Positions 1 to 64,000 of a DNA stretch of 64,000 bases are shown in pieces. Where the stretch lies: the IMG/VR virus record IMGVR_UViG_3300034105_002260; one strand, given 5' to 3'. The notes below the pieces were generated by a model, which saw only the letters and a list, made by a program, of their open reading frames with translations, made no database searches and was not told where the DNA came from. How positions within the stretch are numbered: position 1 is the first letter of the stretch; the number at the start of each line of letters is the position of its first letter. The position numbers and the translations under genes were made by a program. Source of the stretch: a virus.

Positions 1-1211
1 CTAACTTCTATGCTAATACGGAAATGTACGATGAGAGATCAACCGTAACTGTAGGTAGTATAAGTGGAAGAACAGTACAAGAATTTACTAAGTGGTTCTT
101 AGAAGGTTTACAGGTGGCGGAAGAACCTGCGGTGGATTCAAGTAACACTACTGAAGGTGTAAAACCACAATTAGGAACATACATTGGAAAGGGTACAACA
201 ACATTAACATATGATGATTTAGTTAATGATGTTTTCACTAAGACAAAAGTTTATTTCGAATCATTTGAACCCGCTTACAATCTTTTAAATAAAGAATTCG
301 GGCCGTTAATAATGAAATTATTATTAAGTTCAGATTATAGAAAAATAAAAAATTACGATATATTCACGTCAACATCTTTAACTCCAGGAACCACAATTGA
401 AATGATTGGTAAGTACCCTGACGGTACCCCATACTCAAGATTTGTTTCTTTATTAAAAAAGAATCTACTTGATTTTACAAAAACAATAGACTTATGTTCG
501 GTGTTTGCATTCGATAAAGTACTAACCGCTCCTAAAATAATAAAGGCTAATGAATTATTAAGACCTTATATTACTAAATTAATTGAAGATAAAATTAGTT
601 CGTTATCATCTAATAAACAAGTAGATGGGTTTGAAGAAAGAAGAAATAATTTAATAATCGCATTAGATAAGGTTAATTTCTTAGTAAAATATGGATATGA
701 CGCTCAGTTAGAATCCCAGGATAAAGCAATGAAAGCAACTTTATCTGGTTATACGTCTAATTTAATTTATGATGAATATAAAACTTGTATTGATTACATA
801 AAAGATAATACAGGTAAGTTTTATGAAAATATAGATAACACGATAGATTACACCAACCCAACAATAACATCTCAAATTTTAGGTTCTATATTGTCGGTAT
901 TGTTAAGTTCGGGAGGAATGTATAGTAAAGAAACATTAATGAAGGTATTCGATGCGGATAAAACCATATTTGATGAAAATACTATTGAAAAATTAAACAA
1001 AAAAATAACATCGTTCGTTGAATCTCCGAAAGATATTAAATTTAAATTTAAAACGATGAAAGAAAGAAAAAATAGTAACCCAATTTCTTTCAATGTCACA
1101 GCAACAGAAGAAATAACTGACCCTGCGGTAAAAGAACAAGTTACTAATTTAAATTCTAAAAAAGTTGATAGCATAAGTGGTAAATTAAATTATTATAGAA
1201 ATGTCCCGTAG
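1..1211 (+). CDS. Hypothetical (probable virion) protein, likely 5'-truncated by the window edge
   Basis: Frame is open from the window start (first ATG at 24); overlaps the downstream baseplate-type gene. Confidence 0.55.
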   Translation, partial: NFYANTEMYDERSTVTVGSISGRTVQEFTKWFLEGLQVAEEPAVDSSNTTEGVKPQLGTYIGKGTTTLTYDDLVNDVFTKTKVYFESFEPAYNLLNKEFGPLIMKLLLSSDYRKIKNYDIFTSTSLTPGTTIEMIGKYPDGTPYSRFVSLLKKNLLDFTKTIDLCSVFAFDKVLTAPKIIKANELLRPYITKLIEDKISSLSSNKQVDGFEERRNNLIIALDKVNFLVKYGYDAQLESQDKAMKATLSGYTSNLIYDEYKTCIDYIKDNTGKFYENIDNTIDYTNPTITSQILGSILSVLLSSGGMYSKETLMKVFDADKTIFDENTIEKLNKKITSFVESPKDIKFKFKTMKERKNSNPISFNVTATEEITDPAVKEQVTNLNSKKVDSISGKLNYYRNVP

Positions 1212-1527
1212 TTATTTTAACAGATATGAACTTTTTATGGAAGATGGTAGCTTTAGAATAGTACCAGGTATTGAACTCCCAATCAAGGGTTCGGACAAAT
1301 ACCACCAATATAAAAATGGAAAAGATAGATTAGATAAATTATCGCAAGAGTTTTACGGAACACCAATTTTTGGGTGGTTAATTATGAATGCCAACGCTTT
1401 AGCGGGAACAAATGAATTTGAAATCCCCGATAATTTTATCCTTAGAATTCCTTTTCCTTTGGTTACCTCTTTACAAGATTATAAAAGAGGTGTAGAATTG
1501 TATAATTTATATTATGGGGAACAATGA
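1201..1527 (+). CDS. LysM-like baseplate protein (T4 gp53 / P2 gpX-like)
   Basis: Motif DRLDKLSQEFYGTPIFGWLIMNAN...ILRIP; lies just before the hub-like gene. Confidence 0.7.
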   Translation: MSRSYFNRYELFMEDGSFRIVPGIELPIKGSDKYHQYKNGKDRLDKLSQEFYGTPIFGWLIMNANALAGTNEFEIPDNFILRIPFPLVTSLQDYKRGVELYNLYYGEQ

Positions 1528-4500
1528 TTTATCGAATAGTGAGAAAATATTAGTTAAGGTCGATCAGAACAATCTGATGTACATCGACCCTAATAGTGTC
1601 GTGATTAATGGTGAAATAGAACCAAGAGGAATAAAACAGGAAAACTTGGTTATGTTTGTTAATCTTGAAGCTGATATTGTTCCTAGGTCAACACTTGTTT
1701 CAAACGACGACAAGAATACATTAAAAAACATTGCCAAAGGAACTCTGAACTTTTTAAGTAGTGCAACTACTGATAGAGATTACACAACTCAATGGACCGA
1801 TTCTTATTTTGAAAGTAAACCTAAAAAAGTTACAAAAGATGAAAATGGTAACCTTCACGGTGTAGATGAGTTTTATCAAAGTGACGAAACTGGGCAATCA
1901 TTTGGTATTGATAACATTAGTATATTAGTAAAAGGAGCAAATTTTATACCTCAAATCAATATTAACTTTATTGATGTTAGAGGTAAGACTCTTTTTGAAT
2001 CTCCAGAGAATTCACCATATCAAGCTTTCTTTCATTTACCTTGGCCAATATTTTATTTAACGGTTAAAGGATTTTATGGTAAGGCAATTAGATATAGATT
2101 ACACTTAGTAAAATTTAACTCAAGATATAACGAATCAAATGGTAATTTTGAAATTGCCACATCATTTGTCGGTTCATCGTTTGCGTTTATGAATGACATA
2201 CCGTTAAAAGGTGTTCTAAATGCTCCATATATGTTTCTTAAGGAGTCAACAAAACCCGTTGAGTTTAACGAAAGTACGGGTAAATCGACTCAAAAAGTTT
2301 TCAAATCATCAAAGGGTTATGCGATGCTCAATTCCGTTTACTCGGAAATGAAAAGAAAAAAATTAATACCACAAGACTTTCCAGTAAAAACGGTTAGAGA
2401 AATTGGTGCAATTGCGGAGACGTTAGATAAAATATTAGAACAAACAATATTCAGTGAAGTAATAGACACCAAAGTCTTGGCTGGATTACAAGACTATGAT
2501 AAAGATTTAACAAATTTTGAATCAGAAATAAAAAATTGGGCATCTATACATTTAAATAAAAGTTCATACGAAGATACGATTACAGGAAAAGATATTAATG
2601 GTTTGAACACCTATATTAGATATTATGGTCTTAGTGATAAGAACAAATCTGATTTGAAAAATATTGAAGGTAAAGAAAATTATAAAACTTTAGAGGGTTT
2701 GTTAGTACTATACAACGAAAAATTAAAAAATAGTGCAGCTTTAAATAATAATTTACAAAAGAAAACAGATAAATCAATAAATGTAACCATTTCTTTTCTA
2801 TCAAAAAATATAAGTAATGCAGGTAATTACTATAAGAAAAATGAAAGAGGGGAATATGTTGTTGCAATTGATAAATTAGTACAGGATGTTGGTGAAATTA
2901 GAGGAACGTTTTTTGAACAAAAACAAAAAATAGAAAAAGAGGTAGAAAGAAAAATGAATGAAGTGGTTAAAAATCCAAAATTAGGAATTGGATTTGAACC
3001 TACCGTTAGAAATCTATTCGCCGTTTTATTAGCTAACGCGGAAGTGTACGTCAGATTAATGAAAGAAGTACATCAAGATGCATTTAAAGTTGCTAACGAT
3101 AGAAAAGGAAAATTAAAAGGTTTTTCTGATGAAAGTATTGGAGAAACAATTTACCCTTGGCCAGAAATTAAAAGAACATTACCAACAGATAAGAAAAAAG
3201 TTATTGCATACCCAGGAGAACCCGAACTTAGGGAGAAGTTACAATCTAACAACCCATTGTTATGGCCTGAGGTTGCATTTGTTGAGGAATACATTGCGGT
3301 ATCAACCAATAAGAGTGACCCCAACTCCGAAAAAGAAGGTGGTGTGAATAACATTAATTATATATTTGAAAGTGATTTAGACGATTCCAAAGTCAACCAA
3401 GTAAGTTCATTATTTGAAGTTTCAAATAGTATTCCATATAGTGATAGAAGTTTAGTTTCATTTTTATATGAACTACACGAAAGAGCTAAAATTATGACTT
3501 TCGTTGATTCATTTGATGCAACAATAATTAAAGAATTGGTTAATATTGAATATGAAACAATTAATGAAGTAATAAGTGAGGAGCCAGATCTTATTGACAT
3601 TTTAAATACAAATATTAAAACTGTTGAGAACTTAACAACATATATGCAAGGACTATCTCCATTTGAAAGAAGTCCATATTATAGAGACAGTATACCAACT
3701 CAACCGTACATTAAGGATTTGTTAGATGCTCCATTTGATATTAAACAATATGACAATAGTATAACCAAAAAACCTAAAAACGAAAAATTATATAATACAA
3801 TTAATGATCAATTATTAAAATATACTCCAGAACCATATAGAAAAAATATTTATCCGTTTAATTCACCAACATATACGACTTATCTTGATAAACCATTCTC
3901 AGAAAATGATTTGAATTTTAAAGGAGTATTAAAAGTTAGACCAGATAAGGGTTTTATTACAACACCAGTTGGAACATATAATTGGGTTAAAGAAGGATAT
4001 AAAAAGAATGAGAAATACGCTAACTTATTTACTCAATCTATGTCTTTTGCCACACATACTGAAAATGTATTAAACACACCTTACTTTCATAGACAATTAT
4101 TTAGTGATTTTACAAAAACCAACCCATATTCAAAATATGTTGGTTCGGCGTATTTGTTATTAAACTCATTACCATTTGTAGAATTAACCGATAAGATATC
4201 GTTTATTGAATTGGACGGTAAACAAGATACACCAACCTCAGTACTTTTACCACCCGTTAGAGTATCGTCATTATTTAGAGAAATCAGTTCAACACATTAT
4301 GTACCATATCATTTAATTGTGAAATGGGGTTCGATATATCACAGATATAAAAAGAAAATATTAGATGGTGTTGATATTTTAGATGGTTTCCTTGATTCAA
4401 CAGGAACAACTAAAAATATTAACGCTAATTTATTTTTTAACTCAGGTAGAACATCCAATGAGTTTACTGTATTTCCAAATGGATTTAATTTTGTGGGAGG

Positions 4501-7372
4501 ATTCCCAATACCAACAGGGGCAACATTTAGTGACTCAAAAGATATTGGTATACATCCATTTTATGATGCAATATTTCATCAAGTGGTAAATGGATACAAT
4601 CATTATGAGGTACTTTCAGGTAACACCTCATATTTTAGTAATGTTATAAATGGTGGAATTAAAACAAGAGGTACAATCAAATCAAACGGATTAAGATATT
4701 GGACATCCTTTGTTGATAATTCCAAATTTAATCCAGCTGATTTAAGATATACACCATTACCTTGTGATGGTGATAACAAATACGCCGATTTTAATAATAC
4801 GGCGGAAATGGTTATTAATACAGATTCATTTGATAGAGGTAATCAAATTTACTATAGTACGATGTGGGAAGATAACTACATCAACGGAGATTATAGTGGA
4901 AGCACATTTTTTAAATACAATGAATATAATACAAACACAAATGGAGATTATACCGCTGAAGGTAACACAAAAAAAGTTATTGATTTAATTGCAACATTTA
5001 GTCCGGCAATATTAGACCAGTTTGAAGATATATTTTTACAGTTCGCAACTGAAAAATTAAATGAGGAGACCCCTTATAAGAAATTCTCCAAAGTAAAATA
5101 CGATAATTTTCAAGATTTACTAAAAGGACTTCTTTCGGTTAAGAAAGAAACATCTGATGAAGGTAAAACATTTGAAGAACTTGTAAGTCTCATAAAAGAT
5201 AGACAATCTGAAAACAAAATTAAGTTAACAGATGAAATTATAGATTATAGTAACTTATTAGAAATTAAATTAGGAAACCCAAAAGAACTTGACCCTTATA
5301 TAATTGAAGGGTTTGTAGGTATTTCGGGTAACTCTTTAAAATATGACAAGTATAGTTCATCACAATCTGGAAATTTAAAATACATTGAACTTTATGTTGG
5401 TGAAGATATTGGTGGATATTATTTAGATTTTTTTGTAAAAAATAATATTGAACTATCCGAAGAGAACGTTCTTAAGTTTAGACCGTTAATATTGATTTAT
5501 GCAGGATATAGACAATCAGGAGGTTCCGATGTTAAAAAGATATTTCAAGATTATATAAGTACTACTATATTAAATGGTTTACCTTTAACATTCTTATCTA
5601 TAGTACCTCCATTTGCTATTCCAGCAACACCAGGAGCAAATTCAAGATATCAACTATTCATCACCTTATTGATTGGTAAGTTGGGAAGTATAAAAAATAA
5701 AGACCACGTCCACGCGATTGATTTTGTTGATGGATATAACAATAGAAACCTAAAAGTAGAAATATATAATTTCTTTAAATCATTTAACGATAAATGGTCC
5801 TCCGGTAATTCAATTGGACAAAGGTTGTTAATGGAGGAATTTTTATTTTTAGATAAAGCGAATAAAGATATTGGAGATAAAGCTTATTTAAATTTAGAAA
5901 GGTTTGTTTCAATAATTGACCCTAAAAACGATAAGGCAAGTTTATATAGTGCAATCTCAATGTTAATACAGGGAAGTGGTTTCGATATGAGAACACTACC
6001 CGCGTATGTTAACTTTTATGGTAATGGATTAACAACAAGAAGTAAAATTACTCCATCACATACAGTTGCGAATAATTTATTTGGAACATTTTTAGAAGTT
6101 GATTACCAAGAGTCGTCACCTAAAACAGTTATTCAATTTGCGGGACCAACATCCAAGCGTCCTTCGGATATGAATAAAAATTATAGATTTAGTGATGATA
6201 GTTTTAATATATCAGATGTTAATAACAACCCACTAATTGTAACGTTACCTAAAATTTTTGATACGGAGAATTTATCCAAATCAAATAAGGTGGTTGCGTT
6301 TGAGGTTAGTTTTGGTGACCAAAATCAAAGTATGTTTAAAGGTGTTAGTTTAGATCAATCCACAATTAAAAACACATCAGAATCTTTTGTTGTATTAGAA
6401 AACTTGGCAAGATCTGAATCTGGAGCGGGAACGTATAATGTTGACATTGGATTATTTGATTATTACAGACAAGCTTCATATCAATGTGAAGTTACTTGTA
6501 TGGGTAATGTTATGATTCAACCAACAATGTTCTTTTATTTGAAAAACATCCCTATGTTCCGTGGTTCATATTGGATTACTGAAGTTAGTCATAGTATTAG
6601 AAATAATTCAATTACAACAACATTTAAAGGAAGTAGAATACCTCAGGCAAGTTTACCTGATCCAGAAGATTCGTTTGTGTCAAGTTATAAATCATTATTT
6701 GATAGATTACTAACAAAGGCGAAAGCAAAAACAGCAGCAGAAAATTCTGGAAAAGTAACCACAGAAGAATCATTAAAGATTCCAGGTAAAGGTGACTTTG
6801 TTATTGATAAAGGTACAATTAAAATACCTGGAGAAGAACAAGTATTGGAATCGGGGGTTACATCATTCGGTATTCCGTATAATGGATTTAATGGTGAGAA
6901 ATATATTCAAAAAGTTAAATATAAAGGTGGAGACTGGTTTAGAGCGGTTGTTGCGAGAATGGGATCAGAAGCGTATCCAATTGCAGAAGATACCCATATG
7001 GCTATTGTTAGTAGATTTAAAAATCAAGTTGTTACTGATAAAGATGGTAACGGTGGATTATCTTGGAAAGAACTTAAGAATTATTCAAAAACAGAAAATT
7101 TCTATTCAACCAAATTTATACTACAAAGTAACATCACACCTGACCATATTGGAACAGGGACAACTACGTTTTTAAACCCAAATAATGGTACTGAAAAGAT
7201 GATAACCCCATCCTATTCTTTAAATAGGACACTAACAAACGTACCATTTAAAGCACAAGGACCAGTTAATATAGGACCAAGTGTGAATGGTTATGGTATA
7301 GCTCTATCGGAATCACTTATGAAATTATTAGATACCCACGAAGGACAAGTTATCTATTTTAGTATTAAATAG
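1514..7372 (+). CDS. Large baseplate hub-like structural protein (1952 aa)
   Basis: Segment CEVTCMGNVMIQPTMFFYL...GSYWITEVSHSI...TTTFKG resembles the end of gp27/GpD-type hub domains; context after LysM gene. Confidence 0.55.
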   Translation: MGNNDLSNSEKILVKVDQNNLMYIDPNSVVINGEIEPRGIKQENLVMFVNLEADIVPRSTLVSNDDKNTLKNIAKGTLNFLSSATTDRDYTTQWTDSYFESKPKKVTKDENGNLHGVDEFYQSDETGQSFGIDNISILVKGANFIPQININFIDVRGKTLFESPENSPYQAFFHLPWPIFYLTVKGFYGKAIRYRLHLVKFNSRYNESNGNFEIATSFVGSSFAFMNDIPLKGVLNAPYMFLKESTKPVEFNESTGKSTQKVFKSSKGYAMLNSVYSEMKRKKLIPQDFPVKTVREIGAIAETLDKILEQTIFSEVIDTKVLAGLQDYDKDLTNFESEIKNWASIHLNKSSYEDTITGKDINGLNTYIRYYGLSDKNKSDLKNIEGKENYKTLEGLLVLYNEKLKNSAALNNNLQKKTDKSINVTISFLSKNISNAGNYYKKNERGEYVVAIDKLVQDVGEIRGTFFEQKQKIEKEVERKMNEVVKNPKLGIGFEPTVRNLFAVLLANAEVYVRLMKEVHQDAFKVANDRKGKLKGFSDESIGETIYPWPEIKRTLPTDKKKVIAYPGEPELREKLQSNNPLLWPEVAFVEEYIAVSTNKSDPNSEKEGGVNNINYIFESDLDDSKVNQVSSLFEVSNSIPYSDRSLVSFLYELHERAKIMTFVDSFDATIIKELVNIEYETINEVISEEPDLIDILNTNIKTVENLTTYMQGLSPFERSPYYRDSIPTQPYIKDLLDAPFDIKQYDNSITKKPKNEKLYNTINDQLLKYTPEPYRKNIYPFNSPTYTTYLDKPFSENDLNFKGVLKVRPDKGFITTPVGTYNWVKEGYKKNEKYANLFTQSMSFATHTENVLNTPYFHRQLFSDFTKTNPYSKYVGSAYLLLNSLPFVELTDKISFIELDGKQDTPTSVLLPPVRVSSLFREISSTHYVPYHLIVKWGSIYHRYKKKILDGVDILDGFLDSTGTTKNINANLFFNSGRTSNEFTVFPNGFNFVGGFPIPTGATFSDSKDIGIHPFYDAIFHQVVNGYNHYEVLSGNTSYFSNVINGGIKTRGTIKSNGLRYWTSFVDNSKFNPADLRYTPLPCDGDNKYADFNNTAEMVINTDSFDRGNQIYYSTMWEDNYINGDYSGSTFFKYNEYNTNTNGDYTAEGNTKKVIDLIATFSPAILDQFEDIFLQFATEKLNEETPYKKFSKVKYDNFQDLLKGLLSVKKETSDEGKTFEELVSLIKDRQSENKIKLTDEIIDYSNLLEIKLGNPKELDPYIIEGFVGISGNSLKYDKYSSSQSGNLKYIELYVGEDIGGYYLDFFVKNNIELSEENVLKFRPLILIYAGYRQSGGSDVKKIFQDYISTTILNGLPLTFLSIVPPFAIPATPGANSRYQLFITLLIGKLGSIKNKDHVHAIDFVDGYNNRNLKVEIYNFFKSFNDKWSSGNSIGQRLLMEEFLFLDKANKDIGDKAYLNLERFVSIIDPKNDKASLYSAISMLIQGSGFDMRTLPAYVNFYGNGLTTRSKITPSHTVANNLFGTFLEVDYQESSPKTVIQFAGPTSKRPSDMNKNYRFSDDSFNISDVNNNPLIVTLPKIFDTENLSKSNKVVAFEVSFGDQNQSMFKGVSLDQSTIKNTSESFVVLENLARSESGAGTYNVDIGLFDYYRQASYQCEVTCMGNVMIQPTMFFYLKNIPMFRGSYWITEVSHSIRNNSITTTFKGSRIPQASLPDPEDSFVSSYKSLFDRLLTKAKAKTAAENSGKVTTEESLKIPGKGDFVIDKGTIKIPGEEQVLESGVTSFGIPYNGFNGEKYIQKVKYKGGDWFRAVVARMGSEAYPIAEDTHMAIVSRFKNQVVTDKDGNGGLSWKELKNYSKTENFYSTKFILQSNITPDHIGTGTTTFLNPNNGTEKMITPSYSLNRTLTNVPFKAQGPVNIGPSVNGYGIALSESLMKLLDTHEGQVIYFSIK

Positions 7373-7621: not shown

Positions 7622-7625
7622 AACT

Positions 7626-12100: not shown

Positions 12101-13480
12101 ATGCAGCAGGAGAAAAATTTCGGTTTTCTTGGATTTTCTTTTCAACAATCACTCATTAGAGCGGTTATCGAAGACAAAAAATTTGGAGAAGCAATCATAG
12201 ACTTTCTAGACAGTAAATATTTTGACAACAATTCATTTAGATACATTGTAGAAAATATCAAAGAATTATACGTTACGTATAATAAACTACCAGATTACCA
12301 CACTCTATCACAGAAAATAATGACAGAGTCGGGTACTAAGGACACAAATAGAGTACATTTAGATACTTTACAGAACATCAAAGACGATGATAAAGACACA
12401 TCATTTGTTAGAGATACCGCTCTTAATTTTTGTAAACAACAGAACTTAAAAAAGGAACTTAAGAACGTTCATAACATTATCGAAAGTGGTGAATTTGAAT
12501 CGTATAATAAGATTGAGGAAATCATTAAAAGGGCGTTACAAGTCGGTATTAATGATGATCAAGCGGTTGACGTATTTCATAATATTGACCAAGCTTTAGA
12601 AGATAATTTTAGACTACCAATCCCAACAGGAATTGCGGGTATCGACCAACTATTAAAAGGTGGTTTAGGTCGTGGAGAATTAGGTGTTGTATTAGCACCA
12701 ACTGGTACAGGTAAGACAACCTTACTTACTAAATTTGCGAACACGGCATATAACCAAGGGATGAATGTTGTTCAAATTTTCTTTGAAGACAACCCTGGTA
12801 ATATAAAAAGAAAACATTATACGATTTGGTCAGGAATTACTCCTGATGACCAACCCGCAAACGCTGAAGAGGTTAAGAGATTGGTTAAAGAGGCGGAAGA
12901 GAGATCTTCAGGTTCATTAAAATTAATGAAATTTCCTTCAGATAGTGTGACCGTTTCACAAATAAAAAACATCGTTAGAAAGATGAAATCTGACGGATTT
13001 AAAATGGATTTGTTACTTATCGACTACGTTGATTGTATTTCAACAGATAAGAGTACAAATGGTGAAGAGTGGAAAGGTGAAGGTTCCGTTATGAGGTCTT
13101 TAGAGGCTATGACAAGTGAATTTGATATTGCAATATGGACCGCAACACAAGGTAATAGAGAGTCAATTTCATCAGAAGTAGTAACGGGTGACCAAATGGG
13201 TGGTTCTATTAAGAAGGCTCAAATTGCTCACGTTATTTTGTCAATAGGTAAGACATTAGAACAGAAAGAACAAAACTTGGCAACCCTATCACTTTTAAAA
13301 TCTCGTATTGGTAAAGATGGTGTTGTATTTAGTAACTGTAAATTCAATAATGAATATCTTGTTATTGATACAGAATCACAAAGTACCTTACTTGGTATGG
13401 AACAACAAAAAACTCAAAACAACGCAAATAGAGCAGCGGAAGCGTTTAAGAAGAGACAAGAATTACTTAACAATAAATAA
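12101..13480 (+). CDS. Replicative DnaB / gp41-like helicase
   Basis: Walker [29 protein letters not shown]. Confidence 0.9.
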
Positions 13481-13487
13481 TAAAATT

Positions 13488-14465
13488 ATGACGGAAAGAA
13501 TCTTACAAGACAATCCAGGACGTTTTGTCCTTTTTCCAATCGAACATCACGATTTATGGAAATTTTACAAACAATCTGAAGCGTCTTTTTGGACAGCTGA
13601 GGAAATTGATTTAGGTCAAGATGTTACAGATTGGGAGAATAAATTAAATGATGACGAAAAACATTTTATTAAACACGTATTAGCATTCTTTGCTGCGTCT
13701 GATGGAATTGTAAATGAAAATCTAGCAATGAACTTTGTTAATGAAGTTCAATATACAGAAGCTAAATTCTTCTACGGATTCCAAATAATGATGGAAAATA
13801 TTCATAGTGAAACATATTCTTTATTAATCGATACGTTGGTTAAAGATAAGGATGAACAACATTACTTGTTCAATGCGGTTGATACAATTCCTGCCGTTAA
13901 GAAAAAAGCGGATTGGGCTCTTAAATATATTAATTCAGAATCTTTTGTTGAGAGATTATTGGCATTTGCGGCCGTAGAGGGAATCTTCTTCTCTGGTTCA
14001 TTTTGTTCAATTTTTTGGTTAAAGAAAAGAGGATTAATGCCTGGTTTAACATTTTCAAACGAATTAATTTCTCGTGATGAAGGTGTACACTGTGATTTTG
14101 CTTGTCACATTTACAATAACCATATTGAAAAGAAACTAAGTGAAAAGAAAATAAAAGATATTATCTGTGGAGCATTGGAAATTGAGAAAGAATTTATTCT
14201 TGAAGCATTACCAGTTCGTTTAATTGGTATGAATTCCGATTTAATGGCTCAATATCTTGAATTTGTTACTGATAGATTATTAATGGCGTTGGGTTGTTCT
14301 AAAGTTTACAATTCAGAAAACCCATTTGATTTTATGCAGAACATCGCATTACAAGGTAAAACTAATTTCTTTGAGAAAAGAGTTGCCGAATATCAAAAGG
14401 CGGGAGTTAATAATGTTGCAACCGAAGATTTAGAATCCGCGTTTGACGAGGATATGGACTTCTAA
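13488..14465 (+). CDS. nrdB: Ribonucleotide reductase class Ia beta subunit
   Basis: [37 protein letters not shown]; start set at ATG 13488, in frame with the 13308 ORF. Confidence 0.95.
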
Positions 14466-14477
14466 AAATAGTATAAG

Positions 14478-16910
14478 ATGAAAGTAAAAAAAAGAGATGG
14501 TTCCCTAGAGGAAATGAGATATGATAAAATAACACGTAGAATAAGTGTTTTTTGTAGTGATTTAAATTTAGAATACATTGATCCAACATTTGTTACATTA
14601 AAAGTAACACAAGGTATATATGATGGAATAACAACAACTGAGTTAGATGTATTAGCGGCGGAAACAGCTGCGGCAATGGTTACCACTCATCCTGATTATG
14701 CTAAATTATCGGGTCGATTGGCGGTATCTAATTTACATAAGACAACACATAAAAAGTTTTCTCAATGTATTAAAGAATTATATTCTTTTGTTGAACCAAA
14801 AACAGGTAAAGAATCTTCATTAATTGATGAAGGTGTTTACAAATTTGTAATTGAAAATAGAGAGTCTTTAGATGGTGCAATTCATCAAGAAAGAGATTTT
14901 GAATTTGATTACTTTGGATATAAAACATTAGAACGTTCTTATCTTTTAAAGATTGGAGATAGAGTAGTTGAAAGGCCACAGTATCTTTATATGAGAGTTG
15001 CCGTTGGTATTTGTAAAGGTAATTTAGATATGGCGTTAAGAATTTATGACGACTTATCACAACATTTTTATACTCACGCAACTCCAACATTATTTAATGC
15101 AGGTACACGTAGAGCACAAATGTCCTCTTGTTTCTTAATTGGTAATAAGGGTGACGATATTGATGGTCTATTTGATACGATTAAAGATGTTGCCAAAATT
15201 TCTAAATGGGCGGGAGGTATTGGACTTCACGTTCACGATGTTCGAGCTAAAGGTTCTTATATAAAAGGTACAGGTGGACAGTCGGATGGTTTATTACCTA
15301 TGATGAAAACATATAACGAAGTTGCTCGTTGGATTAACCAAGGAGGAAAACGTAAGGGATCTTTTGCGGTTTATCTTGAACCTTGGCATTCGGATATTTT
15401 TGAATTTATTGATTTAAGAAAGAATCACGGTAAAGAAGAAATGAGAGCAAGAGATTTATTCTTGGCAATGTGGACTCCAGGTTTATTTATGGAGAGAGTT
15501 GAACAAGATGGTGATTGGTCTTTATTTTCACCTGATGAAGCACCTGGATTATCAGATGTATACGATTCACCAGAAGATAAGAAATTTACTCGTTTGTATG
15601 AACAGTACGAAAAAGAAGGCAAGGCAAGAAAAGTAATCAAGGCGAGAAAGTTAATGGATGCAATCCTTACTGCTCAAATTGAAACGGGAACACCATATAT
15701 GTTATATAAGGACCCAGCTAACTACAAATCAAACCAAAAGAATTTAGGTACAATCAAATCTTCAAACTTATGTACTGAAATTATTGAATATAGTTCACCA
15801 ACAGAGCAAGCAGTTTGTAATTTAGCGTCAATAGCTTTACCAAAGTATATTATTAATGGTGAATTTAATCACGATTTATTATACGAGTACACATATCAAG
15901 TTGTTAAGAATTTAAATAATGTAATTGATTTAAACTATTATCCAACTCAAGAAACCAAACTTTCAAATTTTAAACATCGTCCAGTTGGGCTTGGTGTTCA
16001 AGGATTGGCAGATGTGTTCTGTATGTTGGGTTTACCGTTCGAAAGTGAAGATGCGGATAAATTACAAACAGATATTTTTGAAACAATATATTTTGCGGCA
16101 ATGACATCTTCTAAAGATTTATCTAAAGAGTTTGGACCATATGAATCAATAGCAGGATCACCAATTGAAAAAGGTGTTTTCCAATTTGAAATGTGGGGTA
16201 AAAAAGATAAAGATTTATCAGGTCGTTGGGATTGGAAATCTCTAAGAAAAGAAGTGGTAAACTATGGTGTTAGAAATTCATTATTAGTCGCACCAATGCC
16301 AACAGCATCAACTGCACAAATTTTAGGAAACAATGAAGCGTTCGAACCATTCACAACCAACTTATATTCTCGTAGAACATTAAGTGGAGAGTTCATTATG
16401 ATTAATAAACATCTAGTTAATGATTTATTAAAAATAGGATTGTGGAGTGATACCATTAAGAATAAGTTAATTATGGAGAATGGGTCAGTTCAAAACATTC
16501 CTGAAATTCCTACTGAAATGAAAGAGGTTTATAAAACAGTTTGGGAAATGTCTCAAAAACGTGTTTTACAAATGGCAGCAAATAGAAGTATATTTATTGA
16601 CCAATCACAATCTTTAAACCTATTTGTTGATAATGCAACTAAACCTAAATTATTGGCGGCTCATTTATTTGGTTGGAAATTAGGGTTAAAAACGGGTATG
16701 TACTATTTGAGAACAAGGGCGGCGGTAGACGCAATTAAAGGTTTAGGAGTTGATACGTCAGTGTCGAAACCAATTGAACAAACGTCATCTATAAACAATG
16801 TGGAAGTACCAACTAATAATACATTAATTAGTGAAAGAACACCTGAAGTCGTAATGACATCAGATAAACCAATAGACTCTCCGTTTGACTGTGAGGGTTG
16901 TGGTTCGTAA
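14478..16910 (+). CDS. nrdA: Ribonucleotide reductase class Ia alpha subunit with ATP cone
   Basis: N-terminal VKKRDG cone, TPTLFNAG, SSCFL, SNLCTEI, APMPTAST, C-terminal CEGC; no intein or intron. Confidence 0.95.
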   Translation: MKVKKRDGSLEEMRYDKITRRISVFCSDLNLEYIDPTFVTLKVTQGIYDGITTTELDVLAAETAAAMVTTHPDYAKLSGRLAVSNLHKTTHKKFSQCIKELYSFVEPKTGKESSLIDEGVYKFVIENRESLDGAIHQERDFEFDYFGYKTLERSYLLKIGDRVVERPQYLYMRVAVGICKGNLDMALRIYDDLSQHFYTHATPTLFNAGTRRAQMSSCFLIGNKGDDIDGLFDTIKDVAKISKWAGGIGLHVHDVRAKGSYIKGTGGQSDGLLPMMKTYNEVARWINQGGKRKGSFAVYLEPWHSDIFEFIDLRKNHGKEEMRARDLFLAMWTPGLFMERVEQDGDWSLFSPDEAPGLSDVYDSPEDKKFTRLYEQYEKEGKARKVIKARKLMDAILTAQIETGTPYMLYKDPANYKSNQKNLGTIKSSNLCTEIIEYSSPTEQAVCNLASIALPKYIINGEFNHDLLYEYTYQVVKNLNNVIDLNYYPTQETKLSNFKHRPVGLGVQGLADVFCMLGLPFESEDADKLQTDIFETIYFAAMTSSKDLSKEFGPYESIAGSPIEKGVFQFEMWGKKDKDLSGRWDWKSLRKEVVNYGVRNSLLVAPMPTASTAQILGNNEAFEPFTTNLYSRRTLSGEFIMINKHLVNDLLKIGLWSDTIKNKLIMENGSVQNIPEIPTEMKEVYKTVWEMSQKRVLQMAANRSIFIDQSQSLNLFVDNATKPKLLAAHLFGWKLGLKTGMYYLRTRAAVDAIKGLGVDTSVSKPIEQTSSINNVEVPTNNTLISERTPEVVMTSDKPIDSPFDCEGCGS

Positions 16911-50328: not shown

Positions 50329-51210
50329 ATGAATTTACAAGAAATTGCAACAGAAATAAATGAACTACTTGAAAATAGACGAAAGGAATTAGATTTAACT
50401 TTCGTTGAAGAGGAACACATTTATTATATGAGAGATACCGAAGGGGTGTTAAGAAAAACATTCCCATCAGTTTCTAAATTAATAAAAAAATTCCACAAGG
50501 CATTTGATGCGGATGGTATGTCACTTAAAATGTGTAAGGGTGATCCTGAAGCCGCAGCACTTTTGAGAGAAGAATGGAAACAATCTGGAACCTATGCAAC
50601 CAATATGGGTAGTAGAGTTCACTTTGTATTAGAGAGTGACACCATTAGTCGTTTTGGTGATTACAAGGAAGTTAGACAACCTATATTCGAATGTGATGAT
50701 GCTCAGTTATTAAGAAGTGATAGTATGATTAAAGCGGGAAAAGAATTTCTTGACTTAATGATTGAAAGAGGGGCAATACTTTTAGATACTGAAATCATAT
50801 TAGGTGATAACGAATTAGGTTACACAGGACAACCAGACAAAGTTTGGTTAATGTTTAACAAAGACAAAACAGATTTCGGAATTGTAATTACAGATTGGAA
50901 AACAAACCAACCAAAAAACTTTGAAATCCAACATTACACAGGTAAAATGTATGCACCGTTTAATGAATATCACGACACGGCGCTTGGCCATTATTATTTA
51001 CAACTACCGTTATATGCTAGGTTATTACTTAAAATGTTAAAAGGAACTAAGTATGAAAACTTAAAATTATTAGGATGTGTTGTGATTTTATTGAAAGACG
51101 ATGGGACATACCAAGAATATAAAGTACCTTCACAAGTAAACAACACAGTATTAAATTTAGACTTAACAAAATATATTGATTATGGTAAAAAAGGTTATAC
51201 ATATCGCTGA
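50329..51210 (+). CDS. PD-(D/E)XK exonuclease (RecB / Cas4-like fold)
   Basis: PSVS, GSRVH, GQPD, TDWKT, YLQLPLYA. Confidence 0.8.
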   Translation: MNLQEIATEINELLENRRKELDLTFVEEEHIYYMRDTEGVLRKTFPSVSKLIKKFHKAFDADGMSLKMCKGDPEAAALLREEWKQSGTYATNMGSRVHFVLESDTISRFGDYKEVRQPIFECDDAQLLRSDSMIKAGKEFLDLMIERGAILLDTEIILGDNELGYTGQPDKVWLMFNKDKTDFGIVITDWKTNQPKNFEIQHYTGKMYAPFNEYHDTALGHYYLQLPLYARLLLKMLKGTKYENLKLLGCVVILLKDDGTYQEYKVPSQVNNTVLNLDLTKYIDYGKKGYTYR

Positions 51211-52000
51211 TCTTCACATCAGAACAATTCAAATGCACGACTTATATAAAGAACAATTTGAAAAGTTAATTAATGAGATTAATGAATTACAAATTGAATG
51301 GAATAAAGAGGGAATTACATCTGATAATATTAGGATAGTTGTTGCTGGGGATATTGCTCACCAAAAGATAAACATATCTAACGAACAATTAATGTTAACA
51401 AGTTGGTTTCTAAAAGAACTATCTTACTTAGGTAATGTTGTAATAATACCAGGTAATCACGATTTCTTAGAGAACAATACACAAAGATTAGACAGTATTA
51501 GTCCTGTCGTTGATTTATTAGATAATAAAAATATCCAATACTATAAAGATAGTGGTGGCTATATTGATGAAAACATTCAATGGGTTGTTTATTCTTTATA
51601 TCAACATAACGCTCGACCAGAGTTTACCAAAGATAAAACTAAATTAACTATTGGTTTATTTCACGGACCTATTATGGGTTTATCCACCGATATGGGATTC
51701 GAATTTGAAGATGCTTATGATCAATTAAACTTTGTTGGTTTGGATTTACTATTGTGTGGTGACATTCATAAGAGACAAACGTTCACATTACCTGAAGGAG
51801 GTAAAGCAGTTATGATTGGTTCATTAATACAACAAAACTTTGGTGAATCAGTTAAACATCACGGATATGGTATTTATGATGTTGAAACGGATAACTATAC
51901 ATTCAAGGATATGGATAACGTACAACCGTTTCTACACTTTAAAATAAACGACATAAATGACATTGAAAATGAAAAAGAAGAGCTCGTTAACCTTGGATAA
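51182..52000 (+). CDS. sbcD: SbcD / Mre11 / gp47-like nuclease
   Basis: ADLH, AGDIAH, PGNHD, FHG, GDIH metallophosphoesterase motifs. Confidence 0.85.
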   Translation: MVKKVIHIADLHIRTIQMHDLYKEQFEKLINEINELQIEWNKEGITSDNIRIVVAGDIAHQKINISNEQLMLTSWFLKELSYLGNVVIIPGNHDFLENNTQRLDSISPVVDLLDNKNIQYYKDSGGYIDENIQWVVYSLYQHNARPEFTKDKTKLTIGLFHGPIMGLSTDMGFEFEDAYDQLNFVGLDLLLCGDIHKRQTFTLPEGGKAVMIGSLIQQNFGESVKHHGYGIYDVETDNYTFKDMDNVQPFLHFKINDINDIENEKEELVNLG

Positions 52001-52493
52001 TGAATTCCTTCTTTATTGTGAAATAAATGGAATTGAAAATATTGACAAACTTGCAAAGGAAACCTTCGAGAGAGGGTTTTCTTTATTAAAATATGGTGAA
52101 ACCCCAACAGGTAATAGTACCGTAAAAGAAAAGATAGTAGAAGTAATCAAGGAAGTTATTATTGAAAAACAATTACCATCTGAAATAAAATACGTTGATA
52201 GGGAAGTTATTAAAGAGGTGCCTGTTGAAAGAATTGTAGAAGTGATAAAAGAAGTTCCGGTTGAAATTAAGGGAGACACCCAAGTGATAACGAAAGAAAT
52301 AATTAAGGAAGTGCCCGTTGATAGGATTGTGGAAAAGATTGTGGAAATTACAAACAACGAGGAAATAGAAAGACTCACCAAAAAGAATTCAGAATTGGAA
52401 ACTGAGTTAGGAAACATCAAAATATCATTAGAGAAATTTAACAAAGCTACCTATATGAAAAATAGTGACCTGGGTAGTTTATATAGTGAATAA
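51969..52493 (+). CDS. Hypothetical protein with IKEVPV(E/D) repeats and C-terminal coiled coil
   Basis: Repeats visible in translation. Confidence 0.6.
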   Translation: MKKKSSLTLDNEFLLYCEINGIENIDKLAKETFERGFSLLKYGETPTGNSTVKEKIVEVIKEVIIEKQLPSEIKYVDREVIKEVPVERIVEVIKEVPVEIKGDTQVITKEIIKEVPVDRIVEKIVEITNNEEIERLTKKNSELETELGNIKISLEKFNKATYMKNSDLGSLYSE

Positions 52494-52541: not shown

Positions 52542-52853
52542 ATGGTTTTATTAACATTATGGGCCTTTATTGCCTACGGATTTACATCAATAATTGTTTG
52601 GGGTGCCATTTTTGAAAAAACTCGAATATTCATTAAGAAACATTCAAATTTTTTTGGTGATTTAATTTCTTGTACATTATGTACGTCAACTTGGGTTGGA
52701 TTTTTTATGTCAATATGTCTTGGAGGTTTATCTTCAAGAATTTTAGACACACATTGGTTACCAAGTATTTTCTTTGACGGTATGTTCACCGCTGGAATCG
52801 TCTGGTCAATAAATGCAATCATAGAATTTTTTGAAGAAAGCAGAATAAAATAG
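52542..52853 (+). CDS. Small membrane protein, DUF1360-like
   Basis: Hydrophobic segments and GDLISCTLCTSTW (CxxC..W). Confidence 0.65.
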   Translation: MVLLTLWAFIAYGFTSIIVWGAIFEKTRIFIKKHSNFFGDLISCTLCTSTWVGFFMSICLGGLSSRILDTHWLPSIFFDGMFTAGIVWSINAIIEFFEESRIK

Positions 52854-53836
52854 TGAAATCTTTAAGGATAGGTAATAATACCTTTTATTATTTAACAACA
52901 AAGGAAATTCTTTATAGAGTAACTAAGGAATACTACTTAGACAATGTTAAGTTGTTTGATTCAGTACGTTCAAAGAATGATGAAGATAAGGAAAAATCAA
53001 TCTATGTTGATATAATAAAAGGTTATAAACAATCCTTCTTTAAGATGTCATCTGAAACAATGGATAACTGGAAAGTTATTATAGATGAACTTAAAGAAAA
53101 ATATAAAGAAGGGGAGTTTGAGCAGGTTGTCAGTCACATAAATAAGGATTCAACGGGTGAATACCACCAAGTCCTTATGAAACATATTGAGAAGGTAAAC
53201 AAGATAAATCCTACAACAATTTTGGGTAGATTATTAAGTTATTCACCAATTGATGAATTAGGATATTCACAACCAACTTTTTTTAATACCTTTGACATAG
53301 TAAAAGACGCTAAACTAATTCCTAATAATGGGGTTCAATGGGATAGACAAGTAAGGAATTACTTCTATGTTGAATATTATAAGGAAAAAGGTTCAACCAT
53401 AGGTTATAGATTTATTGGTTTTAATTTACAAGACGTAACTAAAAACAGACAAATTAGACCAGACATTAGGAGAGCATTTGAAGATGTTCCCTGTGTACAT
53501 TGTTGGACACCAAATAAGTCTCATAAGAAACACGAGATAGACCATAAGAATGGAAGATACGATGATGACCAAGTACTTGAATATAGTAGTCAAGAGGTCG
53601 ACCATTTTCAAGCTTTATGTCGCGAACACAACCTTCTAAAAAGAAGTGCGTGTAAAAAATGTAAAGCAAATGATATTAGATTCGACGCAACGTTTTTAGG
53701 GTACACCACGTCAGTCACCGAAGGTACGTTAAAATATGAAGAACAGTTAGGTTGTAAAGGTTGTTATCTATACGACCCATTAGATTTTAGATCACAATTC
53801 ATTTTAAAAACAAAAGAGAATAATGAAATACAATAA
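52853..53836 (+). CDS. IceA1 / NlaIII-family HNH restriction endonuclease with N-terminal extension
   Basis: NGVQW...RFIGFN...RQIRPDIR, CVHC, EIDHKNGR, FQALCREHN..KR..CKKCK...RFDA, GCKGCYLYDP match remembered NlaIII/IceA1 motifs in order; GTG start. Confidence 0.8.
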   Translation: MKSLRIGNNTFYYLTTKEILYRVTKEYYLDNVKLFDSVRSKNDEDKEKSIYVDIIKGYKQSFFKMSSETMDNWKVIIDELKEKYKEGEFEQVVSHINKDSTGEYHQVLMKHIEKVNKINPTTILGRLLSYSPIDELGYSQPTFFNTFDIVKDAKLIPNNGVQWDRQVRNYFYVEYYKEKGSTIGYRFIGFNLQDVTKNRQIRPDIRRAFEDVPCVHCWTPNKSHKKHEIDHKNGRYDDDQVLEYSSQEVDHFQALCREHNLLKRSACKKCKANDIRFDATFLGYTTSVTEGTLKYEEQLGCKGCYLYDPLDFRSQFILKTKENNEIQ

Positions 53837-56165
53837 TCCATTTATTAAAGTTACTTGGGAAGATACACCAGAAAACTTTACTCCTGAAAAAATCAGAAGA
53901 GTAAAATCTTATTTTCAAGACAAATACAAAGGAAAGAATATCCAGGTCATTACCAAGAGTTTGGTTAACACTTCCAACGTACAATTACAATCGTTGGAGG
54001 CATCTGATAGTATATTAGATAACCAATATCAAAAAGGTTTGATGAAAGATTTTATTAAGGAAAATGGAATCACAACTAAATGGGAATTGGTTGATAGGTT
54101 AGATAATAGAGTTAACGGAGAAATCGATAAGTTAAATCAAAATAAAGTTCGTTACAATAAATGGTATATCAAGAAGATTGAGTTTTCTAATTTTCTTTCT
54201 TTTGGTGAAGATAACGTAATTGATTATACCTCATTAGATGGTATTACAGTTATTGAATCCACACCAAAGAACTTCGGAGGTAAATCTACTTCTTCAGTTG
54301 ATTTATTGATGTTCTTATTTTTTAATTCAACAACCAAAACTAAAACAGCAATTGAAATATTCAATAAGTTTAGTGATAAAGATGAGTTGAGTGTTAGAGG
54401 TGAAATTACTATTGATGGTGATGATTATGTTATTGAAAGGAAACTATCAAGAAAGAAAACCAAAGTAGGTGAATACAACGTAACCAATAAACTTGAGTTT
54501 TATAAGAAGAAGGAAGATGGTACCGTTGAGAACTTAACTGGTGAACAAAGAAGAGAGACTGAAGCATTTATTGAATCGGCTATTGGTAGTGAAGAAGATT
54601 TCTTGGCAACCATTATGACCACAGGTAACAACTTAGAACAGTTAATTGAATCCAAACCAACGGCACGTGGACAAATCCTAACTAAGTTTATGGGATTGGA
54701 GAGTTTAAAAGTAAAGGAAGACATAGCGAGAGGAATATATAATGATTGGAGCAGAAAGTTGGTATCTAATACATACAACATTACTCAATTGGAGATTGAT
54801 AATACCAATTATCAAGACAGTATCACCAATTCTGAAAATGAAAACGAAAGATTAAATGGTGAACTAACTAGATTAGATAAACACCTAAAAGAATTGGAAG
54901 GTAGACGTGATACTGTGTTAGGTTCTCGTAATAACGATATAGATAGAGAACTAATTAATACCAACCCAACTTTACTTGAAAGAGAAATAAATGATTTAAC
55001 GAAACAAAAAAATAGTAGTCAGGTAAATGCGGACGGTGTAAGTGTTGTTGAACCTTCAAAGTATTATGAAGAAGATCAACACAAAGAGTTAAGAGGTGAG
55101 ATGGCAAATCTTCAAGGAATTGATGTTGCTTACAAATACGAAAAGACTCAAAGAGAAAAACTAATTAAACAATTTGAAGAAGGAACAGTTTGCCCAACTT
55201 GTAATCGTGCATTAGATGAAGTTGATCACACCGATGAGATTGAAAAGATTAAAAAAGAAATTGAGGACATCATTAAAGAGATAGAATTAAATCAGATTCA
55301 ATTTGATTTATTAAAACAACAATCCGAACAATTTGATGCACTAAGAACCGAATTTGATACTTACGAGAGAAACAAACTTCGTAAATCTCGATATGAGTTG
55401 GAGGTAGAACAAAAACAACTAGAGATTAGTAATAAACAATTAAGGTTAGATAGATACGACGATAATAAAAAGAAATTAGAGGAGAATCAAAAAATAGATG
55501 CTGAGGTTATTGCGTTAAGAACTAAGATTGATACTGCCAATGCTGATATTAGAGTTACAAACATCACTATTGAACGACATAAATCAAATATTGAAACAAT
55601 GAAAGAAAAAATTGGAGTCAATAATGATTTGATTGTTAAGATTAAAGGTGAGGAAGAACTTGGGAATACATTCAAAACTTACTTAACCATTTATGGTAAG
55701 AATGGTATTTCAAAATTGATTATGAAAAATATGATTCCGCTATTAAACCAGGAGTTGTATCGTTTATTAGTTGATAGTTGTCATTTCATTTTAGAATTAA
55801 ATGTAAACGACAAGAATGAAGTTGAGTTCTTAATGATTGATACCGAAACAAGAGTGGTAAAACCATTGAACTCAGGATCTGGTTATGAAAAGACAATCTC
55901 ATCATTAGCATTGAGATCAGTATTAACAAAGATTTCATCATTACCTAAACCAAACATCGTGGTTATGGATGAGGTGTTTGGTAAAGTGGCGGATGAGAAC
56001 CTAGAGATGGTTGGTGAGTTCTTTAAGAAGATTAAAGATTACTTTGAACATATTATAGTAATTTCCCATAACCCTTTAATCCGTAATTGGTCGGACAATA
56101 TCATTATGATTAAGAAAGAGGAAAATATCTCTTCTATTGATTATATCACAACAAAAATTTCGTAA
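53823..56165 (+). CDS. sbcC: SbcC / Rad50 / gp46-like ATPase
   Basis: NFLSFG, Walker A NFGGKST, coiled coil with CPTC hook, SGSGYEK, VVMDE, ISH. Confidence 0.9.
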   Translation: MKYNNPFIKVTWEDTPENFTPEKIRRVKSYFQDKYKGKNIQVITKSLVNTSNVQLQSLEASDSILDNQYQKGLMKDFIKENGITTKWELVDRLDNRVNGEIDKLNQNKVRYNKWYIKKIEFSNFLSFGEDNVIDYTSLDGITVIESTPKNFGGKSTSSVDLLMFLFFNSTTKTKTAIEIFNKFSDKDELSVRGEITIDGDDYVIERKLSRKKTKVGEYNVTNKLEFYKKKEDGTVENLTGEQRRETEAFIESAIGSEEDFLATIMTTGNNLEQLIESKPTARGQILTKFMGLESLKVKEDIARGIYNDWSRKLVSNTYNITQLEIDNTNYQDSITNSENENERLNGELTRLDKHLKELEGRRDTVLGSRNNDIDRELINTNPTLLEREINDLTKQKNSSQVNADGVSVVEPSKYYEEDQHKELRGEMANLQGIDVAYKYEKTQREKLIKQFEEGTVCPTCNRALDEVDHTDEIEKIKKEIEDIIKEIELNQIQFDLLKQQSEQFDALRTEFDTYERNKLRKSRYELEVEQKQLEISNKQLRLDRYDDNKKKLEENQKIDAEVIALRTKIDTANADIRVTNITIERHKSNIETMKEKIGVNNDLIVKIKGEEELGNTFKTYLTIYGKNGISKLIMKNMIPLLNQELYRLLVDSCHFILELNVNDKNEVEFLMIDTETRVVKPLNSGSGYEKTISSLALRSVLTKISSLPKPNIVVMDEVFGKVADENLEMVGEFFKKIKDYFEHIIVISHNPLIRNWSDNIIMIKKEENISSIDYITTKIS

Positions 56166-56885: not shown

Positions 56886-56890
56886 TATGA

Positions 56891-56920: not shown

Positions 56921-56945
56921 TCATATTTATAATAAAACACATAAT

Positions 56946-57633: not shown

Positions 57634-57634
57634 A

Positions 57635-58276: not shown

Positions 58277-58280
58277 TACT

Positions 58281-58724: not shown

Positions 58725-58780
58725 TTTTTTTTTATTATCTTTATCCAATATAAACAATAAAACTGCTTTCGCCAACAACT

Positions 58781-59596: not shown

Positions 59597-59624
59597 AAAC
59601 AAAAATTATAACTATTATTATAAT

Positions 59625-62501: not shown

Positions 62502-62506
62502 CTAAG

Positions 62507-62746
62507 ATGGCACTAAACGATTCAGACAAAAAAGAAATAGAAAGAATTAGTAGGAAAGAAATCAAAGATTTTATGAGTTCTACTAATGCCCAATCTATTG
62601 TTGTTAAAATGATTCAAGCCGAATTGGGAACAAAGAAGGTGGACGATAAAATAATCGACTTATCAACCAAGGTGGTTGTTGAGTTATTTAAAACATTATG
62701 GCAAAGAAAGTCATTTTGGGAAACAGCATTAAAAAATGTTAGATAA
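62507..62746 (+). CDS. Small hypothetical protein
   Basis: 79-aa ORF coupled to the next gene. Confidence 0.6.
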   Translation: MALNDSDKKEIERISRKEIKDFMSSTNAQSIVVKMIQAELGTKKVDDKIIDLSTKVVVELFKTLWQRKSFWETALKNVR

Positions 62747-63653: not shown

Positions 63654-63654
63654 T

Positions 63655-64000
63655 ATGAACCTGTCTGAAATAAACAATATAATCAATGATGTAATATCTG
63701 AGGAAATCAGAAAGACAATCATTATGGAATCAACAAATAAGGAAGTTTACCACATTAAATGTGATGGTGAGCCTATTGCCACGTTTGATTCTGAAGAAGA
63801 AGCTCAAGAAGCGTTACCCGACTATAAGGCTAAAACCACAGGGGACCTTATCATTGAGAAAGGAATGTATGAATCATATGAAGATATGATAGATAAATTA
63901 GACGAAATGGGTCAAGAATTAGAAGAAAAAGAAAATACAAATATGGAAAATCAAAAACCAATCGACGAGAAATTAGTCGGTAACCAAAAAAACATCGATA
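63655..64000 (+). CDS. Hypothetical protein, 3'-truncated by the window edge
   Basis: ATG 5 nt after TATTTAT; open frame MNLSEINNIINDVISEEIRK...KLVGNQKNID to the end. Confidence 0.65.
   Translation, partial: MNLSEINNIINDVISEEIRKTIIMESTNKEVYHIKCDGEPIATFDSEEEAQEALPDYKAKTTGDLIIEKGMYESYEDMIDKLDEMGQELEEKENTNMENQKPIDEKLVGNQKNID

Follow-up and report, generated by a model that had tools for sequence, protein, structure and literature searches.

The 64,000-nt stretch of viral DNA considered here (positions 1-64000 of the single virus record IMGVR_UViG_3300034105_002260, referred to below as the window and amounting to about 64 kb of a genome estimated at 320 kb) contains no copy of the tetranucleotide CATG, and it encodes, between the genes for SbcD-like and SbcC-like proteins, an HNH endonuclease of the NlaIII/IceA1 family (Pfam ICEA), P0001, that has no methylase beside it. 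When related phages are compared, total loss of CATG tracks the methylase-less form of this nuclease gene and not phylogeny. We suggest, with a probability of about 0.65, that an orphan CATG cutter serves the phage as a weapon and that the phage owes its own immunity to exclusion of the motif, not to methylation.

Absence of CATG from the window

The window has a G+C content of 32.9%, is 97% coding and carries all of its genes on the + strand. A previous sequence-only reading had reported that CATG was missing throughout and had estimated that 150-200 copies should have been expected. Both statements hold up on computation: the count over positions 1-64000 is zero on both strands, compared with 190 copies expected from base composition and 165 from a second-order Markov model. 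After 200 within-gene synonymous codon shuffles the expected number is 94.2±7.1 (z = -13), a conservative null, since it retains a codon usage already skewed by CATG avoidance. The probability of observing no copy is below e^-94. Among all 256 tetramers CATG is the most depleted by the ratio of observed to expected counts (O/E). The next most depleted tetramers are GCGC and CCGG (O/E 0.21 each; 6 vs 29 and 14 vs 66 expected), CGCG (0.42) and GATC (0.44); GTAC, ACGT, TCGA, AATT and TTAA lie close to their expected counts. Each of the palindromes previously listed as present (GATC, GTAC, TGCA, AGCT, TCGA, GGCC and CCGG) was counted in the window. The pentamer pair CGATC/GATCG is far more strongly depleted there than GATC itself, with 2 occurrences vs 57 expected from composition and 19 from the Markov model.

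The motif is avoided through synonymous codon choice in all three reading frames. Histidine preceding a G is encoded by CAC in all 51 cases and never by CAT, as the sequence-only reading had noticed, although before other bases CAT is the commoner codon (127 CAT, 58 CAC); the two examples it had cited, cac gtc cac gcg at 5705-5716 and CTTCACGTTCACGAT in nrdA at 15225, are found where they had been placed. In the second frame, serine, proline, threonine and alanine codons ahead of TG are never of the form NCA (0 of 69), although NCA makes up about 53% of these codons elsewhere, again in agreement with what had been read from the letters. In the third frame, none of the 134 codons ahead of an ATG codon ends in C, compared with 23% elsewhere, and no ATG start codon in the window is preceded by C.

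The nuclease and CATG counts in related phages

The P0001 gene (52853..53836, + strand) encodes 327 aa and matches the Pfam ICEA family (PF05315) with an E-value of 1.7e-26 and 93.6 bits (cut-off 24), residues 159-320 aligning to positions 37-205 of the 218-position profile. All 31 positions that are invariant in a 21-sequence alignment of the family are retained, including D230-H231-K232-N233-G234-R235, N260 and the cysteine ligands C214, C267, C270, C301 and C304. IceA1 is the Helicobacter pylori homologue of nlaIIIR and, according to Xu et al. (2002; via PMC3261200), a CATG-recognising restriction endonuclease. In an AlphaFold model of P0001 (mean predicted local distance difference test score 79.5), residues 199-310 form the HNH core and align to the HNH domains of ZRANB3, Cap5, GVE2 HNH, McrA and T4 endonuclease VII with Z-scores of 4.3-5.9. 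The model places a winged-helix-like region at about residues 100-192 and, from residue 1 to about 90, a phage-specific N-terminal domain; among the homologues compared, the first ~130 residues occur in phage copies alone. The best structural match of the N-terminal domain, to the C-terminal DNA-binding fold of SeqA, was set aside as too weak (Z 3.9-4.1), and an ESM Atlas feature search with the domain found nothing.

The family could be reached by only some routes. PHROGs and NCBIfam gave no family for the open reading frame (ORF), the ICEA alignment used as a profile against PDB sequences had no match, Foldseek of the model against the PDB gave none at E <= 0.001, and none of 50,697 deposited phage genomes matched P0001 in tblastn. 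A scan of IMG/VR with the single P0001 protein likewise returned nothing; the alignment-based scan did recover homologues. Full-length homologues with 44-91% identity occupy the same site in metagenomic phage contigs.

The gene is tightly built into its surroundings. Its GTG start overlaps the upstream stop (TAGTG), and at its 3' end it shares 14 nt with the beginning of the SbcC gene, indicating that it is embedded in the SbcD-SbcC block. The gene is under purifying selection: the ratio of non-synonymous to synonymous substitution rates (dN/dS) is about 0.08 in both halves of P0001, close to the values for SbcC and SbcD, when the window is compared with relatives of 79-82% protein identity (dS > 1). 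No methyltransferase was found beside P0001 or in the window by tblastn with the methylases of relatives, by motif scan, or by Pfam and PHROG scans of most ORFs. The locus therefore lacks the cognate methyltransferase that a type II restriction-modification (R-M) system encodes with its nuclease.

We used the SbcC-like protein as a marker to define 71 related loci in IMG/VR and compared CATG counts, in the metagenomic contigs with full-length homologues as well as in IMG/VR contigs, according to whether the contig carries ICEA alone, ICEA with an adjacent methylase, or no ICEA. In phage contigs the orphan gene is always accompanied by a count of zero. In addition to the window, where 165 copies are expected, this is so for L002-L006 (28-53 expected each), L007 (14.3 kb, 31 expected), G003 (81.6 kb, 222), G011 (159.8 kb, 512), G012 (81.7 kb, 213), G013 (72.8 kb, 200) and G014 (21 kb, 46). 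Together the orphan-ICEA phage contigs, which represent at least five lineages, span about 0.58 Mb; about 1,490 copies would be expected there and none is observed, and CATG is the sole motif of 4-6 nt that is absent from every one of them.

Where ICEA is accompanied by an adjacent methylase, CATG is retained to varying degrees (O/E 0.03-1.1 over all cases). Two loci with an adjacent PF01555 methylase, L008 and L009, have 26 copies of 55 expected and 14 of 27, respectively (O/E 0.47-0.51); a third, G004, has 6 of 170 in 50.6 kb; and various other viral loci that pair ICEA with a methylase range from 0.06 to 1.1. L076 also has a PF01555 methylase at the syntenic slot. An especially clear comparison is offered by G014, which is syntenic with L131-L133 but in which the methylase gene next to a short-form ICEA has been cleanly deleted: its CATG count is 0 of 46 expected, compared with 10-14 of 45-48 in the methylase-bearing loci. 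About 60 of the 71 SbcC-defined loci have no ICEA and show O/E values of 0.4-0.94. Among such phages, the complete 335.6-kb genome G017 contains 584 copies spread evenly at 23-49 per 20 kb, so that neither membership of the group nor base composition accounts for the absence of CATG. The sequence-only reading had favoured a self-encoded cutter, and both the ICEA/NlaIII-family ORF and the way in which CATG loss follows its methylase-less copy support this.

Several apparent counter-examples were examined and dismissed. L128, which has ICEA and CATG and no methylase motif, is flanked by three C5 methylases. In L140/G015 and L159/G021 the motif scan had overlooked PF01555 methylase genes next to ICEA; these genes (G015:7121-7732 and G021:22699-23313) contain one and two in-frame TAG codons, respectively, and the two phages may use a code in which TAG is reassigned. 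L137 is a giant-virus-type contig, 29% complete and on a long branch. There a 288-aa ICEA/HNH homologue adjoins a major capsid gene of nucleocytoplasmic large DNA virus type (L137:8261-10627; 73-kb contig, CATG O/E 0.30), and it may be a counterpart in a eukaryotic virus. Artefact was also rejected as an explanation, since contigs from independent samples and different assemblers (ENA, JGI, Logan, IMG/VR) agree and the result is confined to contigs with the orphan gene.

The ICEA proteins in the SbcD-SbcC slot form a single clade with a Shimodaira-Hasegawa-like approximate likelihood ratio (SH-aLRT) support of 100. The clade includes two methylase-linked forms, the methylases of which are 72% identical to one another. 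On the SbcC tree, however, ICEA-bearing phages are scattered among ICEA-less relatives at four or more positions, and each of these lineages is CATG-free or nearly so. The simplest reading of these trees would be that an old R-M pair occupied the slot, that the methylase was then lost repeatedly, and that the slot moved between lineages by recombination. The purge is also maintained by selection. When CATG-free relatives are compared, their synonymous sites prove to be saturated (dS > 1); they have thus turned over fully with no CATG surviving anywhere in the orphan-ICEA contigs, which shows ongoing selection and is in line with the very strong, long-standing selection proposed earlier from the window alone.

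The nearest relative of the window by SbcC (93%), G005, offers a view of the opposite state. Its slot holds an unrelated 192-aa gene and no ICEA, and CATG occurs 115 times in its 93.6 kb. The four copies that fall within the 11.6 kb aligned to the window are single-base changes from TATG, TATG, CACG and GATG of the window, the outcome that would be expected from relaxation or recombination after nuclease loss. The density of CATG in this phage (L094-L098) is mosaic, at about 0.35 per kb in the window-aligned 11.6 kb and 1.2-1.4 per kb elsewhere, which suggests recombination between CATG-free and CATG-bearing lineages, or a recent loss of the nuclease.

A proposed mechanism and its alternatives

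We propose that the phage produces a CATG-specific HNH nuclease from the gene lying between its gp47-like (SbcD) and gp46-like (SbcC) genes, and that it is immune because its genome contains no CATG. Any new CATG arising in that genome would become a target of the enzyme that the phage itself makes, and would be lost. In an infected cell the nuclease would break up DNA that contains CATG, which may be the host chromosome, the genomes of co-infecting phages, or both, and the co-transcribed SbcCD-type exonuclease, together with the phage ribonucleotide reductase, could then recycle the fragments. As for how this arrangement arose, a complete R-M pair, consisting of ICEA and a beta-class adenine methylase, may have entered the slot; self-restriction pressure would then have eroded CATG in the phage genome; and once the sites were gone, the methylase would have become dispensable and could have been lost several times. 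The wider evolutionary claim, that a jumbo phage lineage turned an R-M system into a methylase-free weapon against host or rival DNA, with immunity due solely to the purging of about 1,000 expected CATG from 320 kb, and that this state was reached repeatedly through methylase loss in several lineages, we regard as evenly balanced. The variable slot and a parallel loss of GATC described below may reflect a broader form of motif-exclusion immunity that uses interchangeable nucleases.

Several observations weigh against the orphan-cutter model. P0001 is only 30-40% identical to its bacterial homologues; it most likely still cuts CATG, but both activity and specificity are inferred. The window covers 64 kb of the estimated 320 kb of its genome, and a D12-class methylase gene is probably located, by synteny, about 4 kb beyond its end. 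G002, another member of the group, has no CATG in 55 kb (17% of its genome; 141 expected) and no ICEA there, its slot being occupied by an unrelated 192-aa gene; something besides the slot ICEA can thus accompany a full purge, unless in this phage ICEA sits elsewhere in the genome. Finally, GATC is wholly absent from several relatives in which no cognate nuclease was identified, so that full tetramer purges do occur in this group without a known self-nuclease.

The GATC pattern deserves a fuller description. The tetramer is missing from G011 (L167-L174), G012, G013, G014 and loci L041, L055-L059 and L068, with 0 vs 473 expected in the 159.8 kb of G011 and 0 vs 38-64 in several loci of 13-22 kb; in the window it is merely halved (83 vs 188 expected). 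No DpnII-family GATC nuclease was found in the GATC-free fragments examined, and the 413-aa slot gene of G011-G013, considered as a candidate, proved to be a UDP-glucose dehydrogenase. Other motifs also deviate in individual genomes. CCGG is over-represented in L007 (51 vs 9 expected from composition and 32 from the Markov model), where GATC is normal; GTAC is over-represented in G004 (429 vs 257 expected) and G002 (309 vs 202); and CTAG is depleted 2-4-fold in G003, G011, G012 and G013.

The GATC-free relatives and G002 speak for an alternative in which a host R-M system of NlaIII/FaeI type purged CATG on its own and the phage ICEA gene is a tolerated passenger with no part in maintaining the absence. 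FaeI and FatI, both CATG enzymes, come from Flavobacterium strains, and staphylococcal phage K is not known to contain GATC. There is precedent for complete loss of a tetramer under host pressure in the HF1-group haloviruses, which have neither GATC nor CTAG (PMC7230728). CATG loss, however, follows phage gene content, namely the orphan ICEA gene, and not phylogeny, and in G014 it coincides with a clean methylase deletion; ICEA-less sister phages, with presumably similar hosts, carry about 1.7 CATG per kb. Against a CATG-methylated host the phage nuclease would moreover be powerless, yet strong purifying selection acts on its gene. None of 24 bacterial ICEA homologues comes from Bacteroidota, in a species-genome scan that was pattern-limited and of limited sensitivity. 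We consider host pressure acting alone unlikely, although it deserves more weight than the two alternatives that follow. The sequence-only reading had named a widespread host CATG system as an alternative to a self-encoded cutter; it may have been the original trigger of the purge, but it leaves the ties to methylase loss and nuclease conservation unexplained.

The D12-class gene raises the question of whether P0001 could instead belong to an ordinary R-M system with a distant partner, the depletion being an extreme form of self-avoidance. The enzyme is an N6-adenine methyltransferase of 278 aa (PF02086, E 8e-21; L169:8742-9578, equivalent to G011:48742-49578) that lies about 12 kb downstream of SbcC and is conserved at 79-98% identity in G011, G012, G013, G003, G002, G005, G016 and G017. 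M.NlaIII and other known CATG methylases are D12-class enzymes, and phages with both ICEA and a methylase are also depleted in CATG, down to O/E 0.03-0.3. R-M genes can be separated from one another (PMC3488263). The distribution of the gene speaks against such a role: it is present regardless of ICEA, CATG or GATC sites, and it is equally present (79-83% identity) in the ICEA-less, CATG-rich genomes G005, G016 and G017, which makes it an unlikely cognate partner. If it did protect CATG, a complete purge would be needless. Relatives with the adjacent beta-class methylase tolerate CATG, by contrast, which identifies that enzyme as the natural partner of ICEA, and it is missing here. A distant partner is in our view improbable.

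More improbable still is a reading in which the ICEA-like gene represents a selfish insert, such as a free-standing HNH homing endonuclease, with a target unrelated to CATG, and in which the absence of the motif is a coincidence. T4-like phages commonly harbour HNH genes as mobile inserts, and both the variable contents of the SbcD-SbcC slot and the patchy distribution of ICEA on the SbcC tree would fit such an element. The match of P0001 is nevertheless specific to the ICEA restriction family, and no generic HNH model was reported for it; relatives pair the gene with a methylase, as R-M systems do; and the slot copies form one old clade with the low dN/dS given above. The link between orphan ICEA and zero CATG, perfect over its ~0.58 Mb and confined to this one motif, would also be hard to reconcile with chance.

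The phage and its wider context

The window belongs to a T4-like jumbo myophage with a genome of about 320 kb and 31-34% GC, a member of a freshwater group whose predicted hosts are Bacteroidota/Flavobacteriia. Its T4-like genes comprise a gp32-like gene, a UvsX/RecA-like gene, a 5'-3' exonuclease, a DnaB-type helicase, nrdB, nrdA, gp25 and a gp6-like gene; it further encodes a primase, a RuvC-like resolvase, an exonuclease, the SbcD-like and SbcC-like proteins, a ClpP-type prohead protease, a sigma factor and an amidase. The closest deposited phages infect Tenacibaculum and Cellulophaga, and the match is restricted to nrdA at about 66% nucleotide identity. When the whole genome of the window was sought with an exact 40-mer, a 4.7-kb IMG/VR fragment was the sole match. 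Contigs of relatives reach 316-336 kb (CheckV completeness 95-100%) with 30-34% GC. In size, G+C content and habitat the group fits the freshwater 'bS21' jumbo phages of Bacteroidota, which have genomes of 293-331 kb with 31-34% GC, Bacteroidota host signals and a bS21 gene (PMC9723584).

The nuclease gene lies in a co-oriented DNA-processing block on the + strand. The block includes an exonuclease gene (50329..51210; phrog_298, E 1.7e-18), followed by the SbcD/Mre11-like nuclease subunit, the analogue of T4 gp47, at the upstream border of the slot (51176..52000; phrog_100, E 6.8e-21, and Metallophos in relatives). Within the slot are a 178-aa gene with no family match that is kept in nearly all relatives (51957..52493) and, directly upstream of the nuclease, a conserved 103-aa gene with a weak match to DUF1360 (52542..52853; PF07098, E 1.3e-4). 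The SbcC/Rad50-like ATPase subunit, the analogue of T4 gp46, forms the downstream border (53823..56165; phrog_77, E 5e-53). A nucleotide-salvage context is provided by nrdB and nrdA, encoding the beta and alpha subunits of ribonucleotide reductase (13308..16910, + strand; PF00268, E 3.7e-113, and PF02867, E 1.2e-199).

Slot contents vary among relatives, being empty or consisting of a gene of the p192 family, ICEA, ICEA with a methylase, or UDP-glucose dehydrogenase. The last of these is the 413-aa UDP-glucose/GDP-mannose dehydrogenase gene mentioned above, located upstream of the nuclease gene (L168:11949-13190 in G011; also in G012 and G013). The p192 family (166-227 aa) occupies the slot of many ICEA-less relatives (L042:9453-10031, L012:9456-10031 and about 40 other loci), as well as that of the CATG-free contig G002. 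Residues D40, E52, E54, K86, R113 and E149 are invariant in the family, and an 'IDL...GVEVE' motif is reminiscent of PD-(D/E)XK nucleases. No match to it was found in Pfam, NCBIfam or PDB sequences, and among the slot loci its presence shows no consistent relation to depletion of GATC or CATG.

Each element of the proposed arrangement has parallels in known systems. P0001 belongs by profile hidden Markov model to the same family as R.NlaIII and H. pylori IceA1 (HpyI), with the HNH core and cysteine ligands conserved, and its phage and bacterial relatives adjoin DNA methylases as in classical CATG R-M systems. It differs from these enzymes in having no adjacent cognate methylase, in its additional N-terminal region of ~130 aa and in its location in the DNA-processing operon of a lytic-type jumbo phage, and its specificity for CATG is a predicted one. 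Chloroviruses (PBCV-1 CviAII, CATG) and marseilleviruses use R-M against host or rival DNA (PMC7253447). The offensive use of a virus-encoded restriction nuclease is what we propose for the window phage as well, but those viruses methylate their own sites, whereas here protection apparently comes from having no sites and no methylase is present.

In T4, breakdown of host DNA begins with cuts by EndoII (denA) and EndoIV (denB) and is completed by the gp46/47 exonuclease. The parallel is an endonuclease that separates host from phage DNA, followed by gp46/47-type nucleases and salvage, and the window gene sits between the gp47 and gp46 homologues; T4, however, discriminates by hydroxymethylcytosine (hmC) versus cytosine, and the window phage would do so by a motif absent from its own genome. 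The HF1-group haloviruses likewise removed a 4-bp palindrome fully from a large viral genome by synonymous changes (PMC7230728). There the loss is credited to host enzymes; here it goes together with methylase loss and with a nuclease of the matching family that the phage itself encodes. PacI is a solitary restriction enzyme whose host genome is not known to contain a copy of its 8-bp site. For solitary enzymes of this kind, surveyed in PMC3488263, as for P0001, the nuclease can be kept without a methylase since the carrier genome has no targets. The AT-only 8-mer of PacI is absent largely by composition, in contrast to a 4-mer with more than 1,000 expected copies per genome that has been removed by selection, here in a virus.

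Virus-encoded R-M, solitary restriction enzymes and full avoidance of a site are each already known separately. Our searches of the literature turned up no account of an orphan 4-bp cutter that is carried by a phage and protected by exclusion of its motif from the whole genome, nor any mention of the absence of CATG in this phage group. If the proposed mechanism is correct, motif exclusion would represent a third route to self-immunity for virus nucleases, beside base modification, as with hmC in T4, and site methylation, as in chlorovirus R-M. It would also provide a natural example of a single enzyme moulding codon-pair usage across hundreds of kilobases, with the intermediate states between R-M pair and orphan nuclease forming an evolutionary series. 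P0001 and its slot homologues would constitute a new, divergent clade of NlaIII-like enzymes with an uncharacterised N-terminal domain. The complete lack of a short palindrome could then be used computationally to flag phage-encoded nucleases and what they recognise, and it cautions that site avoidance is not always a record of host defences.

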